Source of the DNA: Candidatus Poribacteria bacterium
GTDB lineage: Bacteria; Poribacteria; WGA-4E; WGA-3G
Length of the DNA stretch: 64,000 nt
Assembly (NCBI GenBank): GCA_003635255.1
Contig: PYJC01000133.1
Coordinates: forward strand, 6,686-70,685
Direction: 5' to 3'
Below, one piece after another: positions 5,291 to 52,516 of the stretch. The stretch's first letter is position 1; each line of letters begins with the position of its first letter. The notes under the pieces are model-generated. The model was not told the origin of the DNA. It did no database searches and was given only the letters and a program-made list of their open reading frames with translations. Both the position numbers and the translations under genes were made by a program.

Positions 5291-5545
5291 ATGATGCACT
5301 TAACCTCTATTATACTCAGAAGTTTGCTGTTAGTGTCCGTCATAGCAACCAGTTTAGTTTTGCTTGGTTGTGAAAGCGATCCTATACTCGCCCCACAAAC
5401 CGAAGCCGCTGAAGAGGGCGGCAGTTACGGCAACACGAATTTACCAGTTGGTGGCACCCAGAACACGGGAAATACGGTTAAAGATGCGCAAAAAAATAAA
5501 CTTCGTAACAACCGCATCACAACCACAAATCCAAAACTCTTTTGA
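5291..5545 (+). CDS. small putative lipoprotein (84 aa)
   Basis: Signal peptide plus lipobox VLLGC, sitting between the Fur box and the receptor gene. No recognisable domain. Confidence 0.45.
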   Translation: MMHLTSIILRSLLLVSVIATSLVLLGCESDPILAPQTEAAEEGGSYGNTNLPVGGTQNTGNTVKDAQKNKLRNNRITTTNPKLF

Positions 5546-5564
5546 ACGCATAGGAAACAAATCA

Positions 5565-8081
5565 ATGTATCAATTTTTGGGGACAACCCGCAGGCTTTCA
5601 AAAACTTGCATTAGGACAGCAGCAATTGTAACCACCCTATCTCTTCTATTAGGAATACCGAACTTTGGTCAAGGCTCAACTGAAATTAGTGGGATGGTAA
5701 TTGATAAAGAGACAAAGCAACCCATCTGGGGTGCCGTTGTTAAGATTGAATCGGACGGACAGGTTTTAGCAGAAACAACAACAGGCAAAGATGGAAACTT
5801 CCGCCTTACGCCAGATGTTCAAGGTGAGAAACAGATTCAGGTCACTTCAAGCGGTTATAATCGCCACAGCGAGATACTTGCGCTTAACCCCAATTCAACA
5901 CACAATTTGGAGATTCCGTTATCCAGTCAAACTTTTCGGCTCGCCCCGATAGAAATTATCGGCGAATCGTCGCGTAAACATAGAAAACTTACCGGGACGA
6001 TGAGCATGCTTGAACCAGAAATCGTCGACATCATTAAACCCGTCGGAACACAGGAATTACTTGAACTCATACCGGGTATTAACGGCTACGCAGACGACGG
6101 TTTTGGGAACTCGCGCTTAAGCATCGGCATCCGAGGACTGAATCCGCGCCGAAGTGCGCGTGTGCTTATATTGGAAGATGGTGTTCCGATACAACCTGCC
6201 CTTTATATCTATCCGAATGCTTACTACAATCCACCCGCAGATCGCATCAATGCCGTCGAAGTGATTAAAAGCAGTGCAGCACTTCGATACGGACCGCAAA
6301 CGATGGGCGGGGTTATCAACTATACAACCCGAAAACCCGGGGGAACAAAAGGGATAGCAAATCAGTTTACGGTCGGCAACAACGGGTACTACAGCGCATT
6401 TTCAGAATGGAGAGGTATCGGCAATCCCGAAAAAATCGTGTCTGATGTCCAACTCCTCTATAAACACGGAAACGGATTCAGAGAAAATAACACATTTGAT
6501 CAGGCAAATGGAACGGTAAAAACCCTTTTCCAACTCAGCGAGGAAAAAACCCTCTACCTCAAACTTAACGGTAATTATGAAAACTCCAACGCAACGTATA
6601 CCGGTCTGACAGAGTACTCCTTCCAAACCGATCCGAATTTCAATCCGAAAGAACACGACAATTTTAAGATCCTGCGAACCTCACTCGACCTCATCTACAC
6701 CAACAGACTCTCAACAAATCTCGTCAGCAATACGATAATGTATACAAGCGTGTTTGATCGACGGTGGTGGCGTGAGGACGATATTTTCGTGCGTCCCGCG
6801 GCACTTGAAACCGGAAATCTGGTGCCAGTGCCTTATTTCCAAACGGGTGACCTTGTCAGAACCGGTAATGGAAAAAGCAACTTCGGGATCCTCCGCACCT
6901 TCTACGTCGGTGGACTTGAGCAGAACTACACTCTCAACCACAGTATTGCTGGAAATTTAGCACATACTGAAATCGGGGGTAGGGTACACTGGGAACGCTT
7001 TATTGATGACAAGAAAACCGGCGACGCACCAGATGCCCGCGACGGCATCTACTATACTGGCACTCCCGGCTCCGAAACCGATCCAGTAAAGATTGTAGGG
7101 CAAAGTCACCATTATGAAACCATCGCATTGGCACTCTACGCCAAGGAACAGATGAATTTTAAAAGGTTAACCGTTACACCGGGTTTGCGGTTTGAGGTGT
7201 TTAAGCAGGATCGGGTAGATCGGTTACGCGGTTCGGTGCTTGCAGATAAGGTTTCATCAGTGCTGTTGCCGGGGATCGGTGTGAACTATGAGTTCGGGCA
7301 ATTAAACCTTTTCGGCGGCATCCACCGAGGGTACACAGCACCTTCCAGCGGGGCACTGAAGATTACGAATTTTGGACAGAATATTGATGCCGGTGGGCTT
7401 GACCTTAAACCTGAGAAAAGTTGGAACATCGAACTCGGTTTCCGGTCATGGATACCGGGCGTTATTTTAGAAACCTCTGGATTCTTAATTAGGGTTGAAG
7501 ACTTAGTCGCAGCCGGACGCGGCACAGCCTTCAAGAACTTAGGCAAAGTTGATCTATCAGGTGTGGAGATGGCGATGACGTTGGGGATGTCCGAATTTGT
7601 GTCGATACTGCCTGACCTTAACCTCTCTTATACATATCTCCAGACAAAGATTGTTGAGGGTATCGTGAAATCCGCGACTATTGCCGGGAACGTTGATGTC
7701 GAGTTAAACGGCAACGAATTGCCTTACGCGCCACAGCACACTTTCACGGTCGGATTGGCGAAACGCATTGGGGATGTCCTCCGCTTGCGCGTAGATATGC
7801 GGTTCGTAGATGAAGTCTTCACTGACTTTGAAAATCTCCAACAAACTTTCAACCGCGGTGATACAGGTCCCATTCCGAGTTACACAATTGTCAATGCAAG
7901 TATAGACTACAAAATAATCCAACAGTGGCAGATATTTCTTACTGCCAAAAACATTTTTGATCACGTATATATCGGGTCGCGCCTGCATTCAAATGCAGGT
8001 CAACCTGAAGCTAACTTGAGCTCGGGCATCCTCATCGGTCCGAGACGACAGATACTTTTCGGTATCAAACAAGGTTTCTAA
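5565..8081 (+). CDS. TonB-dependent receptor with N-terminal carboxypeptidase-regulatory-like domain
   Basis: I chose the ATG at 5565 (MYQFLGTTRRL...) rather than the ORF start at 5364, which overlaps the lipoprotein ORF. It has a CarbopepD_reg-like GMVIDKETKQPIWGAVVKIESDG, plug motifs (RGLNPRRSARVLILEDGVP) and a terminal ...FGIKQGF. Confidence 0.85.
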   Translation: MYQFLGTTRRLSKTCIRTAAIVTTLSLLLGIPNFGQGSTEISGMVIDKETKQPIWGAVVKIESDGQVLAETTTGKDGNFRLTPDVQGEKQIQVTSSGYNRHSEILALNPNSTHNLEIPLSSQTFRLAPIEIIGESSRKHRKLTGTMSMLEPEIVDIIKPVGTQELLELIPGINGYADDGFGNSRLSIGIRGLNPRRSARVLILEDGVPIQPALYIYPNAYYNPPADRINAVEVIKSSAALRYGPQTMGGVINYTTRKPGGTKGIANQFTVGNNGYYSAFSEWRGIGNPEKIVSDVQLLYKHGNGFRENNTFDQANGTVKTLFQLSEEKTLYLKLNGNYENSNATYTGLTEYSFQTDPNFNPKEHDNFKILRTSLDLIYTNRLSTNLVSNTIMYTSVFDRRWWREDDIFVRPAALETGNLVPVPYFQTGDLVRTGNGKSNFGILRTFYVGGLEQNYTLNHSIAGNLAHTEIGGRVHWERFIDDKKTGDAPDARDGIYYTGTPGSETDPVKIVGQSHHYETIALALYAKEQMNFKRLTVTPGLRFEVFKQDRVDRLRGSVLADKVSSVLLPGIGVNYEFGQLNLFGGIHRGYTAPSSGALKITNFGQNIDAGGLDLKPEKSWNIELGFRSWIPGVILETSGFLIRVEDLVAAGRGTAFKNLGKVDLSGVEMAMTLGMSEFVSILPDLNLSYTYLQTKIVEGIVKSATIAGNVDVELNGNELPYAPQHTFTVGLAKRIGDVLRLRVDMRFVDEVFTDFENLQQTFNRGDTGPIPSYTIVNASIDYKIIQQWQIFLTAKNIFDHVYIGSRLHSNAGQPEANLSSGILIGPRRQILFGIKQGF

Positions 8082-13421: not shown

Positions 13422-14135
13422 ATGTCAAACGCCCCTGATTCAGTACCCGATGAAAAAACAATAAAAAAACTCAAAAAACAGCGACGACGTTCACCTTACG
13501 CATTTCTACCCCTTTCATGGAGCCGAGGCGCGTTTCTCAAGTGGCTCCGACGAACACACGCGTGGCTTGGGCTATGGGGTGCGACTTTGGGCATCCTTTT
13601 CGGGGTTACCGGTATTTTGCTCAACCACAGAGGCACACTAAAAATTAACGCCGCCAAAACTGAGCAGACGAGACGGGAACTCTCACTGCCAGATTACAAA
13701 TTTGAAAATGTTGAAGCGTTCGCAGCGTGGCTGCAAGCAGAACTCGAACTGGACAAGAAATGGAGCCGTGCGCGCTCACAGGAACCCCGAGAAATTAGCT
13801 GGGGTGGCAAATCCGTCACGCAACCCGAAAGATGGAGCGTCAGTTTTAGCAATCCGAAACGGAGTTATAGCGCAGAATATTGGGTCGGCAACGCTTACAC
13901 GACTGTCAGGCAATTTGACAGGAATATATTTGCTTTTCTCAATCGGTTGCACATGTCGAGCGGAATGGGGGTCGCTTGGATTCTTCTCGCCGATACGATT
14001 GCCGGCAGTCTAATTATCCTTGCCCTCAGCGGCATACTGCTTTGGACACGTTTACACGGACCACGGTTGCTTGCAGCAGGGCTTATCTTCGGGTCCTTAA
14101 CCCTTGCTATCGTCTTTGTTTGGCGAGCCTTTTAA
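13422..14135 (+). CDS. PepSY-associated TM-helix protein (PiuB-like)
   Basis: I chose the ATG at 13422 after GGAGA. The WLRRTHAWLGLWGATLGILFGVTGILLNHR motif is typical of PepSY_TM proteins, and a second TM pair sits at the C-terminus. Confidence 0.7.
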   Translation: MSNAPDSVPDEKTIKKLKKQRRRSPYAFLPLSWSRGAFLKWLRRTHAWLGLWGATLGILFGVTGILLNHRGTLKINAAKTEQTRRELSLPDYKFENVEAFAAWLQAELELDKKWSRARSQEPREISWGGKSVTQPERWSVSFSNPKRSYSAEYWVGNAYTTVRQFDRNIFAFLNRLHMSSGMGVAWILLADTIAGSLIILALSGILLWTRLHGPRLLAAGLIFGSLTLAIVFVWRAF

Positions 14136-14154
14136 TGGATTCAGGAGGAAAATT

Positions 14155-16119
14155 ATGATGTCAAACGGGAAAATTTGGTTTTTACGGATACTGATAAACC
14201 TTGTGTTCGGATTGCTCCTGCTCGCTATACTGAGTTCCGCTGAGAGCGGAGACGAGACCCCTGAAACTGACCCCACTGCCGAATTAGCACCTGTTGTGGT
14301 GACCGCAACAAAGACACCTCAACGTTTGGAAGATACACCGGTTATTACAAATCTTATTACACGCGCCGAAATTGAAGCAACCGGCGCAGAGAACATCGGA
14401 GAGGTTCTTGAACATACAACAGGCATCACTATCCACCGAGATGGACACGGTGACGGGGTGCAACTTCAAGGACTCAACTCCGAATACATACTAATCCTTG
14501 TGGATGGCGAACCACAGGTTGGACGTATTGCAGGCAAACTTGACATGGCACGACTTGCTGTTGAAAACGTTGAGCGCATAGAGATCGTCAAAGGCGCGAC
14601 CGCCGCTCTTTTCGGCAACGCCGCACTCGGCGGCGTTATTAACATCATTACCCGTAAGGCGACTTCTCCCTTCTCGGTACAGGTTTCCCAAACATTTGAG
14701 CAAAACAGCACACTCGACAGTCGAGGCACGGTTGAATTGCAACGCGATAACCTTAACGCCCTTTTAACACTCAGTAGAAACTATCGAAATCCAATTGATT
14801 TGGACACATCTGATCTCACAACCACAATCGACGGTTACGCTAATGTGACTGGCTCCGCACGGACAGAATATCAACTCACGCCAGCGACAAATCTCCTGTT
14901 TTCTGGACAATACTTTACCCAGCACCAAGAAGGTATCAGCGATAGCGGGTCCGTCGTTTTTGACAGACTCGGCGATATCGAAAACTTCAGCGGAAGCGTC
15001 GGAGTAGAACACGAATTCGGTGATCGCACACAACGGAAATCTCCAACTTCACTGACTGGAAAACTCTATGCAACCCGATATGACGATGAATCAACCGTCA
15101 TCAATAGAGATTCAGCAGAAATAAGTTCCCAAAATATTAACATTCAAGACCTGCTCAAGGGTGAACTGCAATTTGACACAGTGCTTTGGGAAAAACATCA
15201 ATTCACCCTCGGCGGAGAGGCCGTCATTGAAAATCTCCAATCTCAGCGGATTACTGGTGGAGAACGTGACATTCTCACCAATTCCCTCTTTGTGCAGAAC
15301 GTATTCCGTCCCGTCTCTGCATTCGCACTTGTCCTTGGTGGACGTTTAGACAATCACTCCGAATTCGGCACACATTTCAGCCCAAAGTTGAGCACCATGT
15401 ATCGGATGACCGACAATTTACGCCTTCGCCTTTCGTATGGACAGGGGTTTCGTGCACCAGATTTCAAAAACCTATATCTCGACTTTACAAATGTGACAGC
15501 CGGTTACCAAGTGTTAGGCAATCCGAGCCTTCAACCTGAATCCTCACACAACTGGAACCTCGGGGCAGAGTATCAGATATTCGACAATTTGATTGGCAGA
15601 ATCCACGTGTATCGCAATGACTTGCACAATCTGATTGAAGCCGAGCGCATCGGACAAAGCGCAGCGGGCGGAAGCAAATTTGAATATCAGAACATTAGCA
15701 AGGCGTTCACAGAGGGTGTTGATGTTGAAGCCGTTGTCGGTAGCATTAGCGGGTTTACTTCAACCGTCGGCTACGCGTACCTTCGAGGTGCGGATAAGGA
15801 GACCGGACTACCGCTACTCAACCGTTCAACGCACAGTGGAACGCTCAAATTGGCGTATCTACATGCCAATACCGGCACTCAAATCGACTTGCGTGGACGA
15901 TACGCCAGTCCTTGGGGGTTCTTTGATGACGGCGACAAAGTGCTTGAATCTGAAGAATTGGCACCGAGTTATTGGGTCTGGAACCTCCGCGCTTCAAAGA
16001 CACTTCTTAAAATATTCAAACTGTCAATCGGATGCAATAATATTTTTGATTTCAAAATCCCGACATTTTATACATTTACGGGCCGCTCATTTTATGGCGG
16101 TCTCGCTTTAACCTATTAA
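14155..16119 (+). CDS. TonB-dependent receptor (haem/haemophore-type by context)
   Basis: AGGAGG lies 6 nt before the ATG at 14155. It has a signal peptide, a TonB box-like APVVVTATK, plug motifs (IEIVKGATAALFGNAALGGVINIIT) and a beta-barrel. Confidence 0.85.
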   Translation: MMSNGKIWFLRILINLVFGLLLLAILSSAESGDETPETDPTAELAPVVVTATKTPQRLEDTPVITNLITRAEIEATGAENIGEVLEHTTGITIHRDGHGDGVQLQGLNSEYILILVDGEPQVGRIAGKLDMARLAVENVERIEIVKGATAALFGNAALGGVINIITRKATSPFSVQVSQTFEQNSTLDSRGTVELQRDNLNALLTLSRNYRNPIDLDTSDLTTTIDGYANVTGSARTEYQLTPATNLLFSGQYFTQHQEGISDSGSVVFDRLGDIENFSGSVGVEHEFGDRTQRKSPTSLTGKLYATRYDDESTVINRDSAEISSQNINIQDLLKGELQFDTVLWEKHQFTLGGEAVIENLQSQRITGGERDILTNSLFVQNVFRPVSAFALVLGGRLDNHSEFGTHFSPKLSTMYRMTDNLRLRLSYGQGFRAPDFKNLYLDFTNVTAGYQVLGNPSLQPESSHNWNLGAEYQIFDNLIGRIHVYRNDLHNLIEAERIGQSAAGGSKFEYQNISKAFTEGVDVEAVVGSISGFTSTVGYAYLRGADKETGLPLLNRSTHSGTLKLAYLHANTGTQIDLRGRYASPWGFFDDGDKVLESEELAPSYWVWNLRASKTLLKIFKLSIGCNNIFDFKIPTFYTFTGRSFYGGLALTY

Positions 16120-36400: not shown

Positions 36401-38809
36401 TCATCGTGATAGGTGCGCAGCGACAAGCTTTTCCAACCGCGTAGCCCAAATTTCAGGAGAATGAACCTTCCCGCTTCGCGCCTCAATCACTTTTCCATCG
36501 GTATCAATCAGTACGACTGCCGGGCACTTAACCACAGAAGCCAACCGCTCAATCACCAGACTGAACTGCTGAGCCAGTGGGCCCTCATAATCATCATAAA
36601 TGTGCTGTCCCGGATACCCTTTCTCGCGGATATAGTTGCGGAATGCTTCTTCATTGTTCCATCCGCCAGTGTTAACACTGATAATCTCAAACCCCTTGTC
36701 GTGGTATTTCTGGTATACCGTGTCCAGGGATGTTAGTTCCGCTTCACAATAGTCACTCGTCGTCCAAAAATAGAGCAGCACAACCTTCCCGCGATGCACC
36801 GAGAGCGAAACCGGTGTGCCATCTACAGTGACGGCTGAGAAGTCTGGAACCGCTTTCCCAACCCGCGTGAGTTCAGTCCACTTTACGAGTTGCCCGAGCT
36901 GTTCGCTTCTGGTACTAACCGAGAGAATCTTGCCATCTCGGTCAATAAGCCACTGTGAAGGCACACTATTAATGCCGAAATACCGCGCAAGTTCACTCTC
37001 CCACCCCTTACCATCAAAAATCTGGAGCCACGGGATATCGTGTTCCTGAATAAATTCGCGGAGTTCCGCTTCGCTTTCGTCTAAACTCACACCGATAACG
37101 TCGAAGCCATCCTGGTGATAGTGCGCGTATGCTTCTTTGATATGCGGCATCTCTGGCGCGCAGAAGCCACACCATTTTGCACAGAAATTGAGGAGCACCA
37201 TTTTGCCGCGGTAATCCGAGAACGAAACCGGTGTGCCATCAAATGCCACCGCTGAAAAATCCGAGAGTTCTTTGCCAACCCACGCTGTCTGATCCCATAC
37301 GGTCTTGATCTCTGAATGCCCCACCCACGGATATTTTTCTGCGGATTCGGTGTCACCCAACGCTTCATAGATATCGCTAAGTCCACGTAAAGCGTACCAA
37401 TCGTCGGGTTCTTGTTCAAGTCGTTGCTGAAAGGCGTGCTGTGCTTCAACAATCAGAGGTTTACACCGTGCAAGCAGTTCGGCGTTTTCCTCGGGACTTC
37501 TCATCAGATTCCGATAGATATAGCAAGGCGTTCTCCCGACATCTTTGTACAGTTTTGCCAACCAGTGATACAATTCAGATTCATCTTGCTGCTTCGCGCT
37601 TTCAAACAGCCTTTCGAGTGTGGTCAGCGTTAATTCAAACAAAGGATCTAAAGATTCTCTATAATGGCTAAGTGCAAGAAAACAGGTCTCCACATCATTA
37701 GGAGTCAGTGTCATCGCCTGTTCAAGGAACAGAAGATCCCTGTTTCCTGCACCGTTACCTTCCCAGACAATGATTGCCAACATCTTCATCGCCGCGCCGT
37801 TGTCCGGTTCCTTTTCGAGCACCTCTTCAGAGAACTCTCGGAGTTCTAAAAGCATCGCTTCAGGGAACCGTGAAACGTACTCAGGCAGCTGCGGGGGCAG
37901 TGTCGTTTTACCGTCAACAACGCCTGTTTCAATCCTCGCTTTGAAGTAATCCAAAAGTTGTTCCTGAACTTTCGGGGTGAGTTCCCACCAAGGTTTTGAG
38001 AGTCCACGATCCTCCAGTGAATCAAGGTAGGTATCCCAGAAATCTATATTTTCGGGCGTTCCATTGTCTAAACCACACGCGTTAGCCGATTCTTGAAGCA
38101 ATTTTTTCTGAAACGCTGCCTGCGTCTCAGGTAATAAGGCTCTACATCTTTTAATCAAGGTATTAAGCTTTTCAATCAATGTCCCGAACTGCTCAATTCG
38201 CTCTGGTATTTCAAAGTCTGCCTTGAGAGACTTGATTCTCTGATAGACTGCGTACGGCGTTACTCTATGCCGTTGATAAGCAAACTTCGCATCTCGATAA
38301 TGTAACGTATTGTCCTGTCGCTTTGCCCATTCAAAGAGGCTTTCAAGCGCGATAAGCACTTTTTCTTGTTCATCAATACGTCCGAAACCGTGATATTGCC
38401 TGTACTTGTCAATCAAATGCAGATTTATACACGGATCTTTTGGCACCAATGTCAACGCCTTTTCCACGAATGGTAGACTCTCATCGTAGTTCATATCTCT
38501 CGCTGCTGCTATTGCCAAAATTATAGATGCGCCGCCGTTGTCCGGGTCTGTTTCAAGAACGGCTTCTGCCAACATTCTTAGTTTTGGTTGCATCTCCTCA
38601 GAAAAACGCCAATAATAGTCATGGAAACCGGGTGGAAGTGCCGTCTGGTCATCCGAGACTCCCGCCTCAACCTTCGTTTTGAAGTAAGCGAGGAGTTCCT
38701 CCTGCGTCTCTGCGTCTATCTCTTTCAATTCACCTCTTGCGAGTCCATAGTTGTAAAGTGAGTCGAGGAGTGTATACCAGAAATCTGTAGAATCATGTTT
38801 CGTAGTCAT
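36401..38809 (-). CDS. cytoplasmic protein with a duplicated helical (TPR-like) N-module plus two thioredoxin-fold (TlpA/redoxin-like) domains
   Basis: I chose the ATG at 38809 (GGAG upstream). There is no signal peptide. The ~300-aa N-module occurs twice (DFWYTLLDSL...ETDPDNGGA / DFWDTYLDSL...EKEPDNGAA). The first Trx domain has WCGFC. The second lacks CxxC (FWTTSDYCEAE). Confidence 0.65.
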   Translation of the reverse strand: MTTKHDSTDFWYTLLDSLYNYGLARGELKEIDAETQEELLAYFKTKVEAGVSDDQTALPPGFHDYYWRFSEEMQPKLRMLAEAVLETDPDNGGASIILAIAAARDMNYDESLPFVEKALTLVPKDPCINLHLIDKYRQYHGFGRIDEQEKVLIALESLFEWAKRQDNTLHYRDAKFAYQRHRVTPYAVYQRIKSLKADFEIPERIEQFGTLIEKLNTLIKRCRALLPETQAAFQKKLLQESANACGLDNGTPENIDFWDTYLDSLEDRGLSKPWWELTPKVQEQLLDYFKARIETGVVDGKTTLPPQLPEYVSRFPEAMLLELREFSEEVLEKEPDNGAAMKMLAIIVWEGNGAGNRDLLFLEQAMTLTPNDVETCFLALSHYRESLDPLFELTLTTLERLFESAKQQDESELYHWLAKLYKDVGRTPCYIYRNLMRSPEENAELLARCKPLIVEAQHAFQQRLEQEPDDWYALRGLSDIYEALGDTESAEKYPWVGHSEIKTVWDQTAWVGKELSDFSAVAFDGTPVSFSDYRGKMVLLNFCAKWCGFCAPEMPHIKEAYAHYHQDGFDVIGVSLDESEAELREFIQEHDIPWLQIFDGKGWESELARYFGINSVPSQWLIDRDGKILSVSTRSEQLGQLVKWTELTRVGKAVPDFSAVTVDGTPVSLSVHRGKVVLLYFWTTSDYCEAELTSLDTVYQKYHDKGFEIISVNTGGWNNEEAFRNYIREKGYPGQHIYDDYEGPLAQQFSLVIERLASVVKCPAVVLIDTDGKVIEARSGKVHSPEIWATRLEKLVAAHLSR

Positions 38810-39035
38810 AATCATCTCCAAGGTTATTTTGAGAAAATGCAACTTCAGATACAGCAGTCTACTTAGAAGAATTAGTGTCGCATCTCTAACACCCACTTGT
38901 CAAGCAAATATCAGATATGCGTTCAACTGACACACGTAAGTGTTTTTCCATGATCTATTCATGAAGATAGATATAGCGAAACCCAACAATCCAAACACCA
39001 GAGGCATGAGAATATGTTGGGTTTCCGTCCGAATT

Positions 39036-39066
39036 AAAGTCCCCTGATAAGGGGGATTTAGGGGGT
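39036..39066. repeat. AAAGTCCCC(C)TGATAAGGGGGATTTAGGGGGT repeat, copy 1 of 3
   Basis: The same 31-32-mer occurs at 50279-50310 and 52504-52535. A shared distal AATTYGCGTAAGTCYC box lies ~40-70 nt further on. Confidence 0.85.
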
Positions 39067-39135: not shown

Positions 39136-39399
39136 TTACTGAAAATAATCTGCGTTGATGTCTATGTAATCTTCCCACGCTTCGGGAACTTCATCCTCTA
39201 TAAAGATCGCCTCAACCGGACACGCCGGTTCACATACAGCTCAATCGATGCATTCTTCGGGATCAATGTAGAGTTGATTTACCGCTTCAAACGCGTCAGC
39301 TGCACTGGTCGGATGCGGGTGAATGCAATCTACAGGACACACGTCAACGCATGCGCTGTCTTTTACGTCAATACAGGGTTCGCAAATTACATACGTCAT
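39136..39399 (-). CDS. 7Fe-type ferredoxin paralogue with an in-frame TGA replacing a [4Fe-4S] Cys ligand (candidate selenoprotein, or a recent pseudogene)
   Basis: It is the same length (264 nt) and co-linear with 39483-39746. The TGA is at plus-strand 39241-39243, where copy 1 has TGT (second Cys of CIDCSVCEPECP). The frame continues for 34 codons (AVCEPACPVEAIF...ADYFQ) to a TAA at 39136-39138. Confidence 0.5.
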
Positions 39400-39482
39400 T
39401 TTTTTTCTCCTTGTTGTGTGTTTTTTGATCGGTTGGCACACCAATGCCAAATACTGGTATTCGCGTGCCAACCCGTTGTTAT

Positions 39483-39746
39483 CTATTGAAAATAGTCTGC
39501 GTTGATCTCTATAAAATCTTCCCATTCTTCAGGGACTTCGTCCTCTATGAAGATCGCCTCAACCGGGCATTCGGGTTCACATACACTACAATCGATGCAT
39601 TCTTCAGGATCAATGTAGAGTTGATTGACCTCTTCAAATGCGTCGGATGCATCAGTCGGATGTGGATGAATACAATCTACGGGACAGACATCAACACAAG
39701 CACTGTCTTTTACGTCAATGCAGGGTTCACAAATTACGTACGTCAT
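39483..39746 (-). CDS. fdxA: 7Fe ferredoxin ([3Fe-4S][4Fe-4S], FdxA type)
   Basis: MTYVICEPCIDVKDSACVDVCPVDCIH...QLYIDPEECIDCSVCEPECPVEAIF matches the Thermus/Mycobacterium/Azotobacter-type pattern. AAGGAG RBS. Confidence 0.9.
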   Translation of the reverse strand: MTYVICEPCIDVKDSACVDVCPVDCIHPHPTDASDAFEEVNQLYIDPEECIDCSVCEPECPVEAIFIEDEVPEEWEDFIEINADYFQ

Positions 39747-39838: not shown

Positions 39839-40576
39839 TTAAAATGGGAGGGCAGTCGTCACGTCGGCAGATGTCCAATGAATCTCAGGGTTCAGTGCAT
39901 CGCTTGAATACCGATAACCCCCTTGGACATAACGGATACCTACCATGTTTTCTAATCGATAGGTGAGTTCCTTCGCCTCTGCGATATTCACCTCAATGTC
40001 TGCGTTCTTCTGTAGCTCAAAACCCTTGTGAAGCAATTGCACATGTAACCCATATCTTTCTAAGGCAGATGCAAGCCGATTTGCCAAGGTCTGAAACTGT
40101 GATAACTCCAAGTTAGCCCCATCTTCCTGCCATAGATTAAAACCGTTATGACATACCGGGATGTCTAACCCCTCCTTTTCCAACATTGTTTTTAGTTTCA
40201 TCATGTCGTTGTTGCGATAGCCTACTCCTTCATCCGCGAGGATTTCCAATTGAAATCCCCAATCAACAACATTCAAAGGAAGCGACTGTTCCGCAATTAA
40301 GGACTTCAGAACCTCCTTGATTTCTGGGACGCGGTATGTCTCTAAAGCGAGTCGAGTCGTCGCTTCATCCCTCTCAGATGCCGACCTACCTACGTAGATA
40401 CCGTAACTTAGATTGTTTTCATTCAACCATTGCTCTACGACTTTCTCTATCTTCGACTGTGTTAAACGGTCCGACTTCTCACTCACCACTAACGGACCGC
40501 TATCGGAAGCAATGAGAGGCAGTTTAAGTTCGGTAATCAAGGCATCTAATAATTCTTTCACATCGTTTGGACTCAT
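39839..40576 (-). CDS. hypothetical protein, paralogue of 40633-41340 (unknown family)
   Basis: AAGGAG RBS. It has no TM segment or signal peptide. It shares the N-terminal M(S/T)P..VKELL..LI.E..LP and three GF.L strand-like motifs with its neighbour. Confidence 0.6.
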   Translation of the reverse strand: MSPNDVKELLDALITELKLPLIASDSGPLVVSEKSDRLTQSKIEKVVEQWLNENNLSYGIYVGRSASERDEATTRLALETYRVPEIKEVLKSLIAEQSLPLNVVDWGFQLEILADEGVGYRNNDMMKLKTMLEKEGLDIPVCHNGFNLWQEDGANLELSQFQTLANRLASALERYGLHVQLLHKGFELQKNADIEVNIAEAKELTYRLENMVGIRYVQGGYRYSSDALNPEIHWTSADVTTALPF

Positions 40577-40632
40577 GGGTTTTTCTCCTTTTTGTAAGTT
40601 TCTTCCCTCTTATAATTTCGTCCTTTTGCGAT

Positions 40633-41340
40633 TCAACGCCGCGGGAAACGCCATGGGGAGACACAAATACTCGCACTCGTCCAACTCGTTTCCGAGGCAT
40701 CATCACGGTTTACATACTCGTACGTATTCAGTACATAATTGATGCCGAAAGTTATATCTATCTGTTTGGCAAGCTTCCTGACTTGTGACAGGGGCACCGT
40801 GGTTTCCGCCGCCTTTTCGAGTTGGAAGCCGAGATGAAACATTTTTGCTTTTAGTCTGTTTGCTTTTAATAAAGCCTCAAACCGATGGGCAATCTTCTCA
40901 AGCTGCGATAGTTCAACCCGGGTCCTTCCTTTCTTGTGTAATCGAAATCCACCATGAAGGATCTTGACAGGGTAACTCGTCGTGTCATCCTCCGACAGCA
41001 TAATCAATCGGAAGCCACAATCGGTAAAACGGATAGGCAGCTCTTGTTCTGCTATAACTGATTCAAGGAGGGCTTCAACCGCTGAGGCTTCCAGCAATTC
41101 TTTGGCTGGTGAAGTAGCGTCGGTTTTGGTATAGAATTCCATAATTTCCGGAAGTCCCGGAAGAAGTACATGGAGCTTACCGTCCTTGTTCCATTGCGCG
41201 ATAACGTCCTTAATACGCGCCTCTGTCGTGGAATGCCGCGCCCCTAAATCTTGGGAGGGTAATATATCAACAATGTCAATTGGAAGACATGCCTCCGCAA
41301 TTAAGACCTTCAACAATTCCTTGACTTCTGTCGGTGTCAT
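40633..41340 (-). CDS. hypothetical protein, paralogue of 39839-40576 (unknown family), first gene after the ECF sigma factor
   Basis: AAGGAG RBS. It has no TM segment and no zinc-finger anti-sigma motif. Confidence 0.6.
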   Translation of the reverse strand: MTPTEVKELLKVLIAEACLPIDIVDILPSQDLGARHSTTEARIKDVIAQWNKDGKLHVLLPGLPEIMEFYTKTDATSPAKELLEASAVEALLESVIAEQELPIRFTDCGFRLIMLSEDDTTSYPVKILHGGFRLHKKGRTRVELSQLEKIAHRFEALLKANRLKAKMFHLGFQLEKAAETTVPLSQVRKLAKQIDITFGINYVLNTYEYVNRDDASETSWTSASICVSPWRFPRR

Positions 41341-41354
41341 GTCGGGTTCTCCTT

Positions 41355-41392
41355 TTGTGAATTAAGAATGCAAATCAGCAGAAAAGGTTACA
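41355..41392 (-). promoter_or_regulatory. candidate ECF-type promoter motif (copy 2), upstream of 40633-41340
   Basis: The minus-sense sequence TGTAACCTTTTCTGCTGATTTGCATTCTTAATTCACAA is ~85% identical to the motif at 43547-43584. Confidence 0.45.
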
Positions 41393-41418
41393 TGAATTTT
41401 TCCGATACTGCACACTTT

Positions 41419-42042
41419 CTAACCTTTATCGCGGAATATATTGTCGAACTCACCCGGATATTCTGATTTCATCCAAGCGACTAACTTCTGTTTCGCCCGA
41501 TGCAACCGCACCTTCGTTGCCGATGGACTAATATCCAATGTTTTCGCAATTTCTTCAAGCGTCATGTTATCGAGTCGCAATTCAAATGCACGCTGCTCTG
41601 ATTCCGGCAACCGCTGTGCCAAACCACGAACGATTTCTAATTGCTCTTCGGCGATGATTGTCTCTATAGGTGAGCGATGCTCAGGTTCTATTGTGTAGGT
41701 TTCAAAGATTTCATCAACAGGATCCGTCTCAATACTTCTCCGGTTTTCTCGGATATGTGTAGCGATGAGTTGCTTTGCGATGCTAAACATCCAACTTGAG
41801 AACTTTTTGCGATCCCGAAGCGTTCCGAGGTGCTTGTGTACCCTGATAAACGTCTCTTGCATCAGGTCTTGCGCTGTCTCCCAACTCCCAACCCGCCTGT
41901 AAAAGAAATTGAGAAGCGACATCTCATAACGGTGATAGAGGATTTCAAAGGCACCCTCATTTTCATCGTCTAAACTTTGATACACCAGTTCCTCGTCTCG
42001 TGATTCATCCATCGCCATCACATCCTGTCTTAGCATCGCCAC
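41419..42042 (-). CDS. ECF-type RNA polymerase sigma-70 factor
   Basis: Region 2 (LLNFFYRRVGSWETAQDLMQETFIRVHKH) and region 4 HTH (MTLEEIAKTLDISPSATKVRLHRAKQKL). Confidence 0.85.
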   Translation of the reverse strand: MAMLRQDVMAMDESRDEELVYQSLDDENEGAFEILYHRYEMSLLNFFYRRVGSWETAQDLMQETFIRVHKHLGTLRDRKKFSSWMFSIAKQLIATHIRENRRSIETDPVDEIFETYTIEPEHRSPIETIIAEEQLEIVRGLAQRLPESEQRAFELRLDNMTLEEIAKTLDISPSATKVRLHRAKQKLVAWMKSEYPGEFDNIFRDKG

Positions 42043-42129: not shown

Positions 42130-43473
42130 TCATCGCCCGTCAATTTCCGACGAATCTTTTTTGCCCTCTATTTCCGTCTTAACCAATTCTTCTAACAGGC
42201 TGCCTCTCGCCGCAACCGAGATAACCTTGCCCTCCCGATCCATCAAAAACGGTGCCGGGATACCGCGGACACCATACTGCTCCACGAGATGACCAGCCCA
42301 TTTTTGACCGTCGAAAATTTGTCGCCACGGTATCCCCTGCTCTTTGATGAACTCGCGCAACACCGCTGCGTCTTCATCCAAACTCACGCCGATAACCTCA
42401 AAACCTTCGCCGTGGTATTTCTCGTACACCGCTTTGATCCGCGGTATCTCTCCAATACAAGGACCGCACCACACCGCCCAGAAATCGAGCAAGACGACTT
42501 TGCCACGGTAATCCGCAAGTGAAATCGGATTGCCGTCAAGGTCAACTGCTGATGAGAAGAAATCAGGCAACACCTGTCCTACCCATCCCAAACTGGGATC
42601 TGCTTTGACCTGATATTCATTCGCAAGTTCGATATTTCCTAATTTCTCATGAATATTCGCTAATCCTCTGAGGGCACTCCGGTCATCTTTGTCCTGTTCC
42701 AACTGCTTCTCATAAACCCTTTGTGTTTTCTTAAATACCTGTTCCGCTGCGGCAGTATTTCCTAAGGCCTCTTGGATTTCAGTTAACATGCGAACAATAT
42801 CCCAAGCATCTGGACGCTGCGCCAACTGCTCTTCAAAGACATCCTGAATCTTACCCATGACCGCTGTCCACCGTTCATAGAGTGGATCGTCGCTTTCAAG
42901 TTCCTTGTAAAAATCGTTGGGTCGCGTTGTGACATACAAATAGTCATAACAACACCGGAAGAGCCATTGATACAACATCGATTCTTCACCTTCGCGATGC
43001 CATTCAAATAACCGTTCAAGCGCGATAACGGCCTTATCAAAGTAGAGCGGATCAATCCCAGATTTCACAAACGCTAAATAGCAGAGCGATAGATCGTTCG
43101 GCAGCAACAGCGTCGCTTTCTCCGAAAAGACCCAGTACTCATCGGGCGGTATGTCGTAGGTCCACCCCGCCAGCGCGATTGCCAAAAATTTTGCGGCTGC
43201 ACCGTTATCGGGATCGGTTTCCAGCGCGTTTTCCGCGTGTTCTTGCAGCTGTTGACACATCGCTTCAGGAAGCCGCCAGACATACTCGTTCCATATCAAA
43301 TCCGGTGGAAGGCGGGTTTCTCCATCAATGACACCCGCATCAATTTTCGCCTTGAAATGGTCAACAAGTTTTTCTTGAACATCGGGCGAGATCTCCCACT
43401 CAACACTCGAAAGCCCTCGGTTTTCAAGCGTACCAAGAAACGCATTCCAGACATCTACACTGTTTTCTTTCAC
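42130..43473 (-). CDS. cytoplasmic helical N-module plus TlpA-like thioredoxin (WCGPC) protein, single-module paralogue of 36401-38809
   Basis: I chose the GTG at 43473 (GGAGG 7 nt upstream). There is no signal peptide. The N-module is homologous to both repeats of the 802-aa protein. The Trx motif is FWAVWCGPC. Confidence 0.6.
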   Translation of the reverse strand: MKENSVDVWNAFLGTLENRGLSSVEWEISPDVQEKLVDHFKAKIDAGVIDGETRLPPDLIWNEYVWRLPEAMCQQLQEHAENALETDPDNGAAAKFLAIALAGWTYDIPPDEYWVFSEKATLLLPNDLSLCYLAFVKSGIDPLYFDKAVIALERLFEWHREGEESMLYQWLFRCCYDYLYVTTRPNDFYKELESDDPLYERWTAVMGKIQDVFEEQLAQRPDAWDIVRMLTEIQEALGNTAAAEQVFKKTQRVYEKQLEQDKDDRSALRGLANIHEKLGNIELANEYQVKADPSLGWVGQVLPDFFSSAVDLDGNPISLADYRGKVVLLDFWAVWCGPCIGEIPRIKAVYEKYHGEGFEVIGVSLDEDAAVLREFIKEQGIPWRQIFDGQKWAGHLVEQYGVRGIPAPFLMDREGKVISVAARGSLLEELVKTEIEGKKDSSEIDGR

Positions 43474-43546
43474 GATTTTACCTCCAAATTTTTCTTGTTC
43501 ATAAAATATCTGATTTCGATTTTGTATCCTTGAATCTGAGCCTTCA

Positions 43547-43584
43547 TTGTAGATTAAGAATGCAAATCCCACAAAAAGGTTACA
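43547..43584 (-). promoter_or_regulatory. candidate ECF-type promoter motif (copy 1), upstream of 42130-43473 and the sigma gene
   Basis: The minus-sense sequence is TGTAACCTTTTTGTGGGATTTGCATTCTTAATCTACAA. Confidence 0.45.
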
Positions 43585-43658
43585 TAAAAAAGGATCGTCC
43601 CTCAATTATCATATAATTTACACACAAACTTACTATTGTTCATAGTACGACAACCTGT

Positions 43659-48082: not shown

Positions 48083-48784
48083 ATGCCATACAAAAATCTA
48101 AGCATCTTCATACTTTTTTATACCCTCATTAGCTGCACCCTCTCCGCATCCGCCGAGACGTGGCACGACGATTTTGATGCCGAAAACCCAGACGCATGGG
48201 ATGCCGTCGGAAAGAATTTCATCTGGAAAGTAGATGATGGATTTCTACGCGTAGAGGTGAAACGTGAATGGGAGATAGACTACGAACTCTACCAATTCAC
48301 CGCAGTCCCGGGACCTTATAGGAACTTCATAATCAAGATAAACGATTTCGGCGGCGATAAAACGCGCTTCGGTTTTTGTGTCGGACAGCATTTCTCCGAT
48401 ACCCCCGGAGAGGATCCATTCTTTTATATCTTTTTTCCCGATGAAATCAGAGCAAGGCGTTTTGACGGTAAAGGGAACAGCCACCCCTTCCGCTTTCGGC
48501 TCTCCAGAGAGCCGCGCATCCGTTGGGAAACAGATACCTTGACACAGATGGAATTGCACTTTAATTTAGGATACTTCGTGCTATTCGCAGACGGTAAATT
48601 CCGCACTGCGTTCCAAGATGCCAACTTCGACAAAATTGAGATCCTCGGCTTTGTCATGGAAGGCATTAACATCGCAAACGAGTGGGTCGGTAAGGCATGG
48701 GCAGACTCCTTCACCATCTCAGGGCTCGACATCACACCAGAAGCCAAATTAACCGCAATGTGGAGCCAACTCAAGATTAGATGA
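48083..48784 (+). CDS. secreted DUF1080/LamG-like lectin-fold protein with KLTAMWSQLK tail (module gene B2)
   Basis: It has a signal peptide and is a paralogue of 46480-47175. Confidence 0.6.
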   Translation: MPYKNLSIFILFYTLISCTLSASAETWHDDFDAENPDAWDAVGKNFIWKVDDGFLRVEVKREWEIDYELYQFTAVPGPYRNFIIKINDFGGDKTRFGFCVGQHFSDTPGEDPFFYIFFPDEIRARRFDGKGNSHPFRFRLSREPRIRWETDTLTQMELHFNLGYFVLFADGKFRTAFQDANFDKIEILGFVMEGINIANEWVGKAWADSFTISGLDITPEAKLTAMWSQLKIR

Positions 48785-51673: not shown

Positions 51674-52516
51674 ATGACTCAAAAAGGAATCCTGTACGTC
51701 CTAATCCTTACCATTTTGTCGGTCTGTGGCACACAACACATCCCCTCTGCCGATGATATCCCTGACGGTATGGTACTCATCCCCGCAGGCGAATTTGAAA
51801 TGGGGAGTCGCACTGGCAAAAACAATGAACGTCCAGTGCACACCGTTTATCTTGATGCCTTCTATATGGACATCTACGAGGTAACGAACGCACAATATAA
51901 AATTTTCGTCGATGCAAATCCGCAGTGGCAAAAAGATAACATTCCCGAGGAATATCACGACGGTGTATACCTCAGACTCTGGGATGGGAACACCTATCCC
52001 GAAGGCAAAGCTGACCATCCTGTCGTTTATGTGAGTTGGTACGCAGTGATGGCTTACGCAGAATGGGCAGGCAAACGGTTACCAACAGAGGCAGAGTGGG
52101 AAAAAGCAGCGCGCGGCGGACTTATCGGGAAAGCGTATCCATGGGGCGATACCATTGATGCAACCCGCGCAAACTTCACACGGCATTTCAACGCGCCAAT
52201 CGCTGTCGGGCAGTACCCACTCAATGGTTACGGTTTATGCGATATGGCTGGGAATATCTCCGAGTGGTGTCTCGATGAATACGATCCTGATTTCTATGCA
52301 ACTTCCGCACGTAAAAACCCATTTTCAAAAGGAAAACGTCAAGCGACTATCAATGATTTCAAAAAAGTGCAGCAGAAAGAACGCGTGTTACGTGGCGGCT
52401 GCTGGAGCGATAACGGATTGTTCCTGCAGGTCTCGTACCGTGACTGGGGACCGCAGAATTACACCAGCGTCTTCCGCGGGTTCCGCTGTGTGAAAGACGT
52501 ATTAAAGTCCCCCTGA
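51674..52516 (+). CDS. formylglycine-generating-enzyme family (SUMF1/FGE-sulfatase domain) protein
   Basis: MVLIPAGEFEMGS, RPVHTVYLDAFYMDIYEVTN, HPVVYVSWYAVMAYAEWAGKRLPTEAEWEKAARGG, GNISEWC, RVLRGGCW. The start at 51674 is preferred (AAGGAG upstream). Confidence 0.8.
   Translation: MTQKGILYVLILTILSVCGTQHIPSADDIPDGMVLIPAGEFEMGSRTGKNNERPVHTVYLDAFYMDIYEVTNAQYKIFVDANPQWQKDNIPEEYHDGVYLRLWDGNTYPEGKADHPVVYVSWYAVMAYAEWAGKRLPTEAEWEKAARGGLIGKAYPWGDTIDATRANFTRHFNAPIAVGQYPLNGYGLCDMAGNISEWCLDEYDPDFYATSARKNPFSKGKRQATINDFKKVQQKERVLRGGCWSDNGLFLQVSYRDWGPQNYTSVFRGFRCVKDVLKSP

Follow-up and report, generated by a model that had tools for sequence, protein, structure and literature searches.

The window analysed here, a stretch of 64,000 nucleotides (nt) from a Candidatus Poribacteria bacterium (contig PYJC01000133.1, positions 6,686 to 70,685 of the forward strand), carries on its minus strand two tandem genes for ferredoxins of the seven-iron (7Fe) FdxA type. 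In the second of these genes, copy 2, the codon that specifies a cysteine in copy 1 is a TGA, and it is followed by an open frame and by a sequence able to fold into a hairpin resembling a selenocysteine insertion sequence (SECIS). The features of the pair are given below in window coordinates, with Sec and U standing for selenocysteine.

39136-39399, minus strand: predicted Sec-type 7Fe ferredoxin gene (copy 2), 87 codons plus TAA, product MTYVICEPCIDVKDSACVDVCPVDCIHPHPTSAADAFEAVNQLYIDPEECID-U-AVCEPACPVEAIFIEDEVPEAWEDYIDINADYFQ
39483-39746, minus strand: Cys-type paralogue (copy 1), intact 87-residue 7Fe ferredoxin, codon 53 being TGT
39241-39243, minus strand: in-frame TGA, codon 53 of copy 2, predicted selenocysteine codon at the second Cys of CxxCxxCxxxCP
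39214-39230, minus strand: SECIS-like hairpin AACCGG-CGUGU-CCGGUU, encoded by codons E57-P58-A59-C60-P61-V62

Both reading frames are 264 nt long and share 84.8% nucleotide identity. A preliminary description of this DNA, made from the sequence alone, had placed them 347 nt apart, and we reproduced both the coordinates and this distance, which runs from start to start and leaves an intergenic gap of 83 nt. The homology between the two copies reaches about 75 nt upstream and includes the ribosome-binding site. The change of TGT to TGA at 39241-39243 was also reproduced from the sequence, together with the 34 open codons that follow it, encoding AVCEPACPVEAIFIEDEVPEAWEDYIDINADYFQ up to the TAA at 39136-39138; if the UGA is read as Sec, the residues around position 53 are LYIDPEECID-U-AVCEPACPVEAIF. 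Our recount of the codon differences between the copies agreed with the earlier figures of 16 synonymous and 3 non-synonymous before the TGA and 8 synonymous and 5 non-synonymous after it, and the stop codon changes in addition from TAG in copy 1 to TAA in copy 2. Reading the sequence directly, we found no in-frame ATG, GTG or TTG in copy 2 downstream of the TGA, so the C-terminal half of the protein is obtainable by read-through only.

TGA terminates 6 of the 35 open reading frames (ORFs) of at least 250 codons in the window, among them three ferredoxin-adjacent genes (the cluster neighbours ending at 40633, 42130 and 36401, where the TGA stops are clear), so this codon is not globally reassigned. 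The preliminary description had named three ordinary TGA stops; those at 48782-48784 and 52514-52516 do close long ORFs, whereas the one at 5543-5545 is a poor example, closing merely an 84-codon frame that overlaps a TonB-receptor gene.

Conservation of the TGA codon and of the frame beyond it

Orthologues sharing the TGA were expected to appear in databases as gene-caller products cut at the same place. When the 52-residue N-terminal product of copy 2 was compared with a large protein collection, six clusters of proteins of exactly 52 or 50 residues were among the closest matches, with 79-96% identity, and the DNA of all these truncated homologues had a TGA at the same column (17 of 17 loci). 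Past the TGA, the frame of these 17 loci continues as xxCEPxCPVxAIF...INAxYFQ through to the true stop. GenBank and IMG annotate the TGA-form genes as 'ferredoxin, partial' or plain 'ferredoxin', with 50-52 residues. A 479-residue sensor-kinase-like protein (P0141) is grouped in the 90%-identity cluster of one 52-residue ferredoxin fragment (P0004), which looks like a database clustering artefact.

In addition, 185,579 species-representative genomes were searched with a codon-degenerate DNA pattern for C-I-D-TGA-x-[V/I]-C-E-P-x-C-P-V, in which all synonymous positions were left free. The pattern matched four genomes, all of Poribacteria; three of them are chromosomes of 5.2-7.0 Mb (OY764073.1, OX639973.1 and OZ240244.1), and OZ240244.1 holds two TGA-form ferredoxin genes. 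A cluster look-up yielded dozens more TGA-form contigs of up to 8.1 Mb, from short-read and long-read assemblies.

The TGA codon is conserved across the TGA-lineage genes: it occupies the codon-53 column in 25 of 25 genes (16 distinct sequences), whereas codon 53 is TGT or TGC in the tandem paralogue and in all Cys homologues. An alignment of orthologues, which the preliminary description had suggested, thus contained the TGA in every TGA-lineage orthologue found. Each of the 25 genes has exactly one internal stop, with no later stop or frameshift. Over the 33 codons after the TGA, the ratio of non-synonymous to synonymous substitution rates (dN/dS) among TGA-form orthologues was 0.10-0.18, at a proportion of synonymous differences (pS) of 0.41-0.75, and a Fisher test pooled over three phylogenetically independent pairs of TGA forms gave p = 2.7e-10 for purifying selection on this region. 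Since the post-TGA frame is under purifying selection, the comparison shows that it is translated.

These data bear on two explanations in which the TGA would have no coding role. According to the first, which the preliminary description had worded as a single recent nonsense mutation, copy 2 is a pseudogene or gives a deliberately truncated 52-residue product; TGT and TGA do differ by one base, and gene callers and GenBank do call a 50-52-residue or 'partial' ferredoxin. Yet 25 genes have this TGA, spread over at least three clades of sequences and over four genomes at species level; at one related locus (L005) there is no copy other than the TGA form, and at two others (L012 and L020) both copies are TGA forms. 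The purifying selection after the TGA (all 34 codons being free of further stops or frameshifts), the single internal stop and the lack of a downstream start together refute a nonsense mutation, and we regard a pseudogene or a truncated product as barely credible. The second explanation, a sequencing or assembly error in the window, would involve only a single base; however, dozens of independent assemblies, built from short or long reads of many samples with many assemblers and sequencing technologies, contain the same TGA in sequences 79-96% identical to that of the window, which excludes an assembly error and leaves a negligible probability for an error of any kind. We hold it almost certain that the UGA of copy 2 is translated and that the full-length protein is functional.

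The hairpin downstream of the UGA

The preliminary description had noted the hairpin AACCGG-CGUGU-CCGGUU 10 nt 3′ of the UGA, and its sequence and position were confirmed. Counting from the U of the UGA, the stem AACCGG/CCGGUU occupies nt 14-19 and 25-30 and the apical loop CGUGU nt 20-24 (39220-39224). The published consensus for bacterial SECIS elements (bSECIS) comprises a loop of 3-9 nt on a stem of 4-16 bp, a G at loop position 1 or 2 (typically N-G-[G/U]-N-N), a UGA-to-loop distance of 16-37 nt and a minimum free energy of -7.5 kcal/mol or lower (PMC13188914). The window element has a 5-nt loop (CGUGU), a 6-bp stem, a spacing of 16 nt and an energy of -7.6 kcal/mol, and the variants in other lineages have A-GUG-U loops (3 nt), stems of 7-9 bp and energies of -9.3 to -12.6 kcal/mol. 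All 16 distinct TGA forms agree with the consensus on all four criteria and none of the 10 Cys forms does; a perfect 6-bp stem with a G at loop position 1 or 2 is likewise present in 16/16 TGA forms and 0/10 Cys forms.

The codons for E-P-x-C-P-V, which encode the hairpin, are GA(A/G) CCG G(C/A)G TGT CCG GTT in 16 of 16 distinct TGA forms, whereas three or four synonymous codons are in use at other conserved Pro and Val positions of the same genes. Synonymous invariance was found at 4 of 4 hairpin codons versus 4 of 19 codons elsewhere (p = 0.008), and we take this codon-level pattern to show that an RNA-level constraint acts on a hairpin fitting the SECIS consensus. Directly after the first Pro codon, TGA forms invariably have GCG or GAG and most close Cys forms GAA, and the Cys forms having GAG are without the stem. 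In copy 1 the equivalent hairpin is broken (AACCCG; codons CCC, GAA and TGC), as the preliminary description had stated for the Cys copy, but the interruption is not general to Cys forms, as three other Cys paralogues, which lie beside TGA forms at related loci (numbered with L), keep the stem:

L004:9655-9918, L017:2179-2406 and L019:1758-2021: stem-retaining Cys paralogues

The loop G (GAA versus GAG/GCG) therefore discriminates between TGA and Cys forms at least as much as the stem does.

The copy 2 arrangement is similar to that of known selenoprotein genes (E. coli fdhF and the bSECIS of Zhang and Gladyshev) in having a UGA that aligns with Cys, a hairpin immediately downstream of it and a G-U in the apical loop. 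In comparison with the full fdhF element of about 40 nt, the window hairpin has a 17-nt core, comparable to the 'minimal' fdhF upper stem-loop, and it has no evident bulged U, while a lower stem involving the UGA is weakly suggested. In the fdhF SECIS, positions 23-24 hold the essential G and U of the loop, close to the numbering in the window.

We consider it likely that residue 53 of copy 2 is a selenocysteine inserted via this hairpin. In the proposed mechanism the UGA at codon 53 would not be read as a stop, and the hairpin, with its 6-bp stem and its CGUGU loop carrying a G-U near the 5′ side, would act as a minimal bacterial SECIS; SelB with Sec-tRNA(Sec) would bind it and bring selenocysteine to the ribosome, and the product would be a full-length 87-residue ferredoxin with Sec in place of the second CxxCxxCxxxCP cysteine, which is the [4Fe-4S] ligand equivalent to Cys42. 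The Sec gene, in tandem with its all-Cys paralogue, would probably be transcribed together with it. The preliminary description had likewise proposed a Sec/Cys paralogue pair with a minimal SECIS, which is supported by the conservation of the TGA, the purifying selection and the hairpin with its loop G. Copy 2 most likely encodes a previously unrecognised selenocysteine-containing ferredoxin and is not a broken gene.

Several observations weigh against this interpretation. The window hairpin is minimal, its spacing of 16 nt being the lower bound of the consensus and its energy of -7.6 kcal/mol lying next to the threshold of -7.5. It falls within the strongly conserved EPxCPV motif, and the full AACCGG/CCGGUU stem is kept in the three Cys paralogues listed above, with GAA and not GAG/GCG in the loop, so that hairpin conservation is partly inherited and not Sec-specific; these paralogues either preserve traces of an earlier Sec state or are 'pre-SECIS' sequences that a single mutation would make functional. 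The co-variation check that the preliminary description had suggested gave no two-sided compensatory change, the variation being confined to an A-U pair that became G-U and an extra G-C pair; the pairing is thus not demonstrated by covariation, and its support is the synonymous-site invariance. A 91-nt segment folds no better than shuffled sequences (z = -0.09), and the SECIS-like hairpin is not in its minimum-energy fold, which is a larger hairpin common to both copies and stronger in the Cys copy, so the support for the SECIS-like hairpin is comparative and not thermodynamic. No Rfam SECIS family was detected, whether the whole window was scanned at gathering thresholds or the surroundings of the genes at E <= 10, the only matches being at chance level (freshwater-2, snoRNAs). 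The TGA-form sequences are partly non-independent, many of them coming from one sponge metagenome project. Finally, no selA, selB, selD or tRNA-Sec was seen in the window and 209 kb of related loci, which represent a few per cent of a 5-7 Mb genome: ARAGORN, run on the window and on 13 related loci, predicted no tRNA-Sec, and tblastn with E. coli SelA, SelB and SelD gave no match in the window plus the 209 kb, a small fraction of the genome. As only a few per cent of the genome was sampled, these searches neither confirm nor exclude the selenocysteine machinery.

Some of these points would fit a SelB-independent read-through of the UGA by a near-cognate or suppressor tRNA (for Trp, Cys or Arg), with the hairpin as a general stimulator or a by-product of the motif. 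The hairpin is small and without compensatory covariation, the Sec machinery was not seen in the loci sampled, and a constant G after the UGA behind two invariant codons is a possible read-through context. The loop G that defines bacterial SECIS elements, however, distinguishes the TGA forms from the Cys forms, the neighbouring genes use TGA as a normal stop, and Trp or Arg at a [4Fe-4S] ligand position is unlikely to yield a working cluster, while the rest of the motif is under strong purifying selection. We judge this kind of read-through very unlikely. As for the codon context itself, the first two of the CID codons before the UGA are invariably TGC ATC (39244-39252) and the base after it is always G (39238-39240) in 16/16 TGA forms, while Cys forms vary at these sites; this context may favour recoding over termination.

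Residue 53 and the machinery for its insertion

Copies 1 and 2 align over residues 1-86 with solved 7Fe ferredoxins (M. smegmatis FdxA 2v2k, E = 7e-25; B. schlegelii 1bc6, 2e-23; T. thermophilus 1h98, 1e-21), the E values ranging from about 1e-25 to 1e-16 when A. vinelandii FdI is included. They resemble FdxA-type 7Fe ferredoxins in full-length similarity, in the pattern Cx7Cx3CP...CxxCxxCx3CP and in the C-terminal helix region; copy 2 differs in having a Sec codon at the Cys42-equivalent position, and both window proteins differ from the solved ferredoxins in a 10-residue insertion (PHPT.A.DAF) after the first motif and in the lack of a long C-terminal extension. The pattern positions of copy 2 are C9, C17, C21-P, C50, U53, C56 and C60-P. 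In the Cys copy all seven are Cys, and this, with the end-to-end alignment, bears out the preliminary description of copy 1 as a complete 7Fe FdxA-type ferredoxin. The nearest NCBIfam models are those of FdxA, with scores below the cut-offs (FdxA_Actino 94.6 vs 125, FdxA_Protbact 74.7 vs 135 and FdxA_fam 35.6 vs 65), which suggests a related but distinct short subfamily. None of the selenoprotein models in NCBIfam was matched by these ferredoxins. The AlphaFold2 prediction for the Cys copy, made with a 26-sequence alignment, had a mean predicted local distance difference test (pLDDT) score of 55.7, too low to use.

In the alignment with 2v2k and 1bc6, codon 53 corresponds to a cluster-ligand cysteine, namely Cys42 in 7Fe numbering. 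In 7Fe ferredoxins Cys20, Cys39, Cys42 and Cys45 bind the [4Fe-4S] cluster and Cys8, Cys16 and Cys49 the [3Fe-4S] cluster; the predicted Sec at the Cys42-equivalent position would thus be a [4Fe-4S] ligand, in agreement with the place that the preliminary description had assigned to the TGA. Position 53 is the second of CxxCxxC, which we take to be the site of the 'unique', removable iron. This iron has a variable ligand, which governs the interconversion of [3Fe-4S] and [4Fe-4S] clusters, and a non-Cys residue is found at the same motif position in Pyrococcus furiosus Fd and Desulfovibrio africanus Fd III (Asp14). In contrast to the carboxylate of these Asp-type ferredoxins, the residue predicted here is Sec, which is softer and more nucleophilic than its analogue Cys.

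Sec does occur in other proteins with Fe-S clusters. PRK07118 and CopZ-like selenoproteins have Sec in or near a Cys-rich cluster motif, as here, but none of them is a small FdxA-type protein, and the PRK07118 model NF005503 was not among the best 25 of the 26 NCBIfam matches of the window protein (E <= 0.001). In HgcB (NF040864) the Sec is in the C-terminal tail, and the window protein scored 21.7 bits with this model versus a cut-off of 99. The Sec of HdrA was considered as a [4Fe-4S] ligand and rejected, as a 2026 structure places Sec197 in a Cys-Sec selenylsulfide. The large subunit of [NiFeSe] hydrogenase is similar in its natural use of Sec for a metal-ligating Cys and in the coexistence of Sec and Cys isoforms; there, however, the Sec is on the catalytic Ni-Fe site of an enzyme, and here it would be on the cubane cluster of a simple electron carrier. 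For Sec bound to Fe, these hydrogenases are given as the natural example in a study of a Sec-ligated [4Fe-4S] peptide, in which a single Cys-to-Sec swap in a synthetic maquette still permitted [4Fe-4S] assembly, at a nearly unchanged potential (-476 vs -471 mV versus the saturated calomel electrode; PMC10946529). The maquette is an artificial 14-mer in which Sec takes the place of the first Cys, whereas the predicted Sec of copy 2 is at the second Cys of a natural protein. Since the potential of the maquette was almost unshifted, an altered oxygen tolerance or iron lability seems, by analogy, a likelier functional consequence than redox tuning.

Published data on other Poribacteria genomes bear on the machinery. 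Hits to the clusters of orthologous groups (COGs) of all three proteins are recorded: for SelA 2 in bin70, 4 in bin44 and 2 in Ca. Poribacteria WGA-3G, for SelB 1 in each of the three, and for SelD 1 in bin70, 2 in bin44 and 1 in WGA-3G (PMC5649159 Table S4). The GC content is 47.25% in the window and 47.18% in bin44. Moreover, Sec-type group 4 hydrogenases are reported from Poribacteria (PMC13582414).

The same hairpin together with a SelB-type factor might alternatively serve a tRNA-ReC (selC*-like) that puts Cys at the UGA, so that the product would be all-Cys and gated by recoding. The conserved TGA, the purifying selection and the SECIS-like hairpin fit an insertion of Cys equally well as one of Sec, and tRNA-ReC decodes UGA as Cys with a downstream SECIS in several bacterial phyla (PMC13582414, available part, citing Vargas-Rodriguez et al. 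2018). The phyla reported there are Armatimonadota, Desulfobacterota and JAPLJL01, not Poribacteria, and SelA and SelD, which serve Sec synthesis, are recorded in 3/3 of the tabulated Poribacteria genomes. An all-Cys paralogue, furthermore, adjoins the TGA form in most genomes, and a second route to the same protein would be without obvious purpose. An insertion of Cys is therefore unlikely in our view. We infer that the inserted residue is Sec rather than Cys and that it would ligate iron; on balance we lean towards a natural Poribacteria ferredoxin with a selenolate on one [4Fe-4S] iron, at the 'unique' iron position, beside an all-Cys twin.

Locus, related loci and significance

The ferredoxin pair is the end of a minus-strand cluster (upstream genes at 39839-42042) that is syntenic in other Poribacteria. 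The further features of the locus, and those of a second clade, are:

39400-39482, minus strand: intergenic spacer, with the AAGGAG ribosome-binding site of the Sec copy at 39407-39412
39431-39473, minus strand: 9-bp inverted repeat GGTTGGCAC-N25-GTGCCAACC between the ferredoxin genes
39040-39056, minus strand: terminator-like hairpin and T-rich tail, some 80 nt past the stop codon of the Sec copy
39839-40576 and 40633-41340, minus strand: two proteins of unknown function, paralogous to each other (245 and 235 residues respectively, 29% identical)
41419-42042, minus strand: extracytoplasmic function (ECF) sigma factor, upstream in the conserved cluster
36401-38896 and 42130-43605, minus strand: two large tetratricopeptide repeat (TPR) proteins with ResA/TlpA-like thioredoxin-fold domains (motifs WCGFC and WCGPC)
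L012:10001-11002, L013 and L020:3512-4515: second-clade loci, with TGA forms of 91 and 85 codons

No terminator was predicted between the two ferredoxin genes (39400-39482), so they are probably co-transcribed, and the terminator-like hairpin at 39040-39056 is the probable end of the transcription unit. Having no T-run, the inverted repeat in the spacer is atypical for a terminator; it could be a binding site for a regulator or a hairpin for RNA processing. Its left arm, TTGGCACGC, recurs ahead of copy 1, and in L019 and L021 the TGA copy is preceded by a similar-looking region. The two paralogous proteins had no Pfam or NCBIfam match; their place between the sigma-factor gene and the ferredoxin genes is conserved in every clade-A locus, and they could be partner proteins of the sigma factor. 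The flanking TPR proteins show a weak likeness to NCBIfam selenoprotein models (WAxxUGC, TUGYCR), here as Cys forms. The gene at 36401-38896 is missing from the syntenic L001, L004 and L005, where tRNA-Glu/tRNA-Lys and purA come directly after the ferredoxins.

The order Cys then Sec is found in the window, L004, L017, L019 and L021, the order Sec then a more divergent Cys copy in L001 and L002, and Sec only in L005. In the second Poribacteria clade (L012, L013, L020) two Sec forms lie on either side of a cupin gene with no Cys copy nearby, and the first TGA form shares 32 nt with the end of an ECF sigma gene. A link to ECF sigma factors was dropped as evidence, since the sigma factors of the two clades are only about 27% identical and some 50-60 such factors are encoded in Poribacteria. 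In a neighbour-joining tree, tentative given the short sequences, the TGA forms are spread over at least three positions; this points to Cys/Sec switching or gene conversion more than once, and Cys paralogues one nucleotide from a working SECIS would ease such switching.

Two metagenomic contigs, with GC contents of 62.5% and 57.9% respectively, non-Poribacteria-like and without the Poribacteria hairpin, carry FdxA-type genes with a TGA at the same Cys column and an open frame (L022:348-680, Ga0302320_10214730; L023:2222-2458, Ga0105239_10127879); their TGA may reflect sequencing errors, pseudogenes or independent Sec acquisitions. An all-against-all tblastn search for Cys/TGA pairs gave no site other than the ferredoxin one, and a crude codon-usage scan for further TGA-interrupted genes was discarded, as it returned antisense artefacts alone and missed the ferredoxin itself. 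TonB-dependent receptor genes lie at 5364-8081 and 14104-16119 on the plus strand, and the second has weak NCBIfam Sec-TonB matches (CU, PCPU, FCYXU, PUIUD), far under the cut-offs.

To our knowledge, nearly all known selenocysteines are in catalytic redox sites or in the Ni, Mo or W centres of a few enzymes. The preliminary description knew of no ferredoxin with a Sec ligand, and this was upheld: no Sec ferredoxin family was found in NCBIfam or by term searches of the 2022 and 2026 catalogues of prokaryotic selenoproteins, and full-text literature searches found no report of one. The combination of ordinary bacterial Sec recoding with an ordinary ferredoxin is thus predicted to give an unprecedented Sec-ligated cubane cluster. 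If so, this would be the first natural cluster of this kind in a simple electron carrier, a natural version of the thiolate-to-selenolate swap in [4Fe-4S] clusters that chemists have so far attempted with peptides, with the all-Cys control retained in the same operon, and the effect of a Sec ligand on the potential, oxygen stability and iron lability of an Fe-S cluster would be directly testable. A SECIS with a 17-nt core, one nucleotide away from its Cys paralogues (GAA vs GAG/GCG), would also offer a compact model of a Cys-to-Sec codon switch. For Poribacteria, the systematic annotation of TGA-form genes as 50-52-residue or 'partial' proteins would mean that the selenoproteome is under-called, and the Sec isoform may be more oxygen-tolerant or site-differentiated (for sensing or catalysis), suiting the alternately oxic and anoxic sponge tissue.

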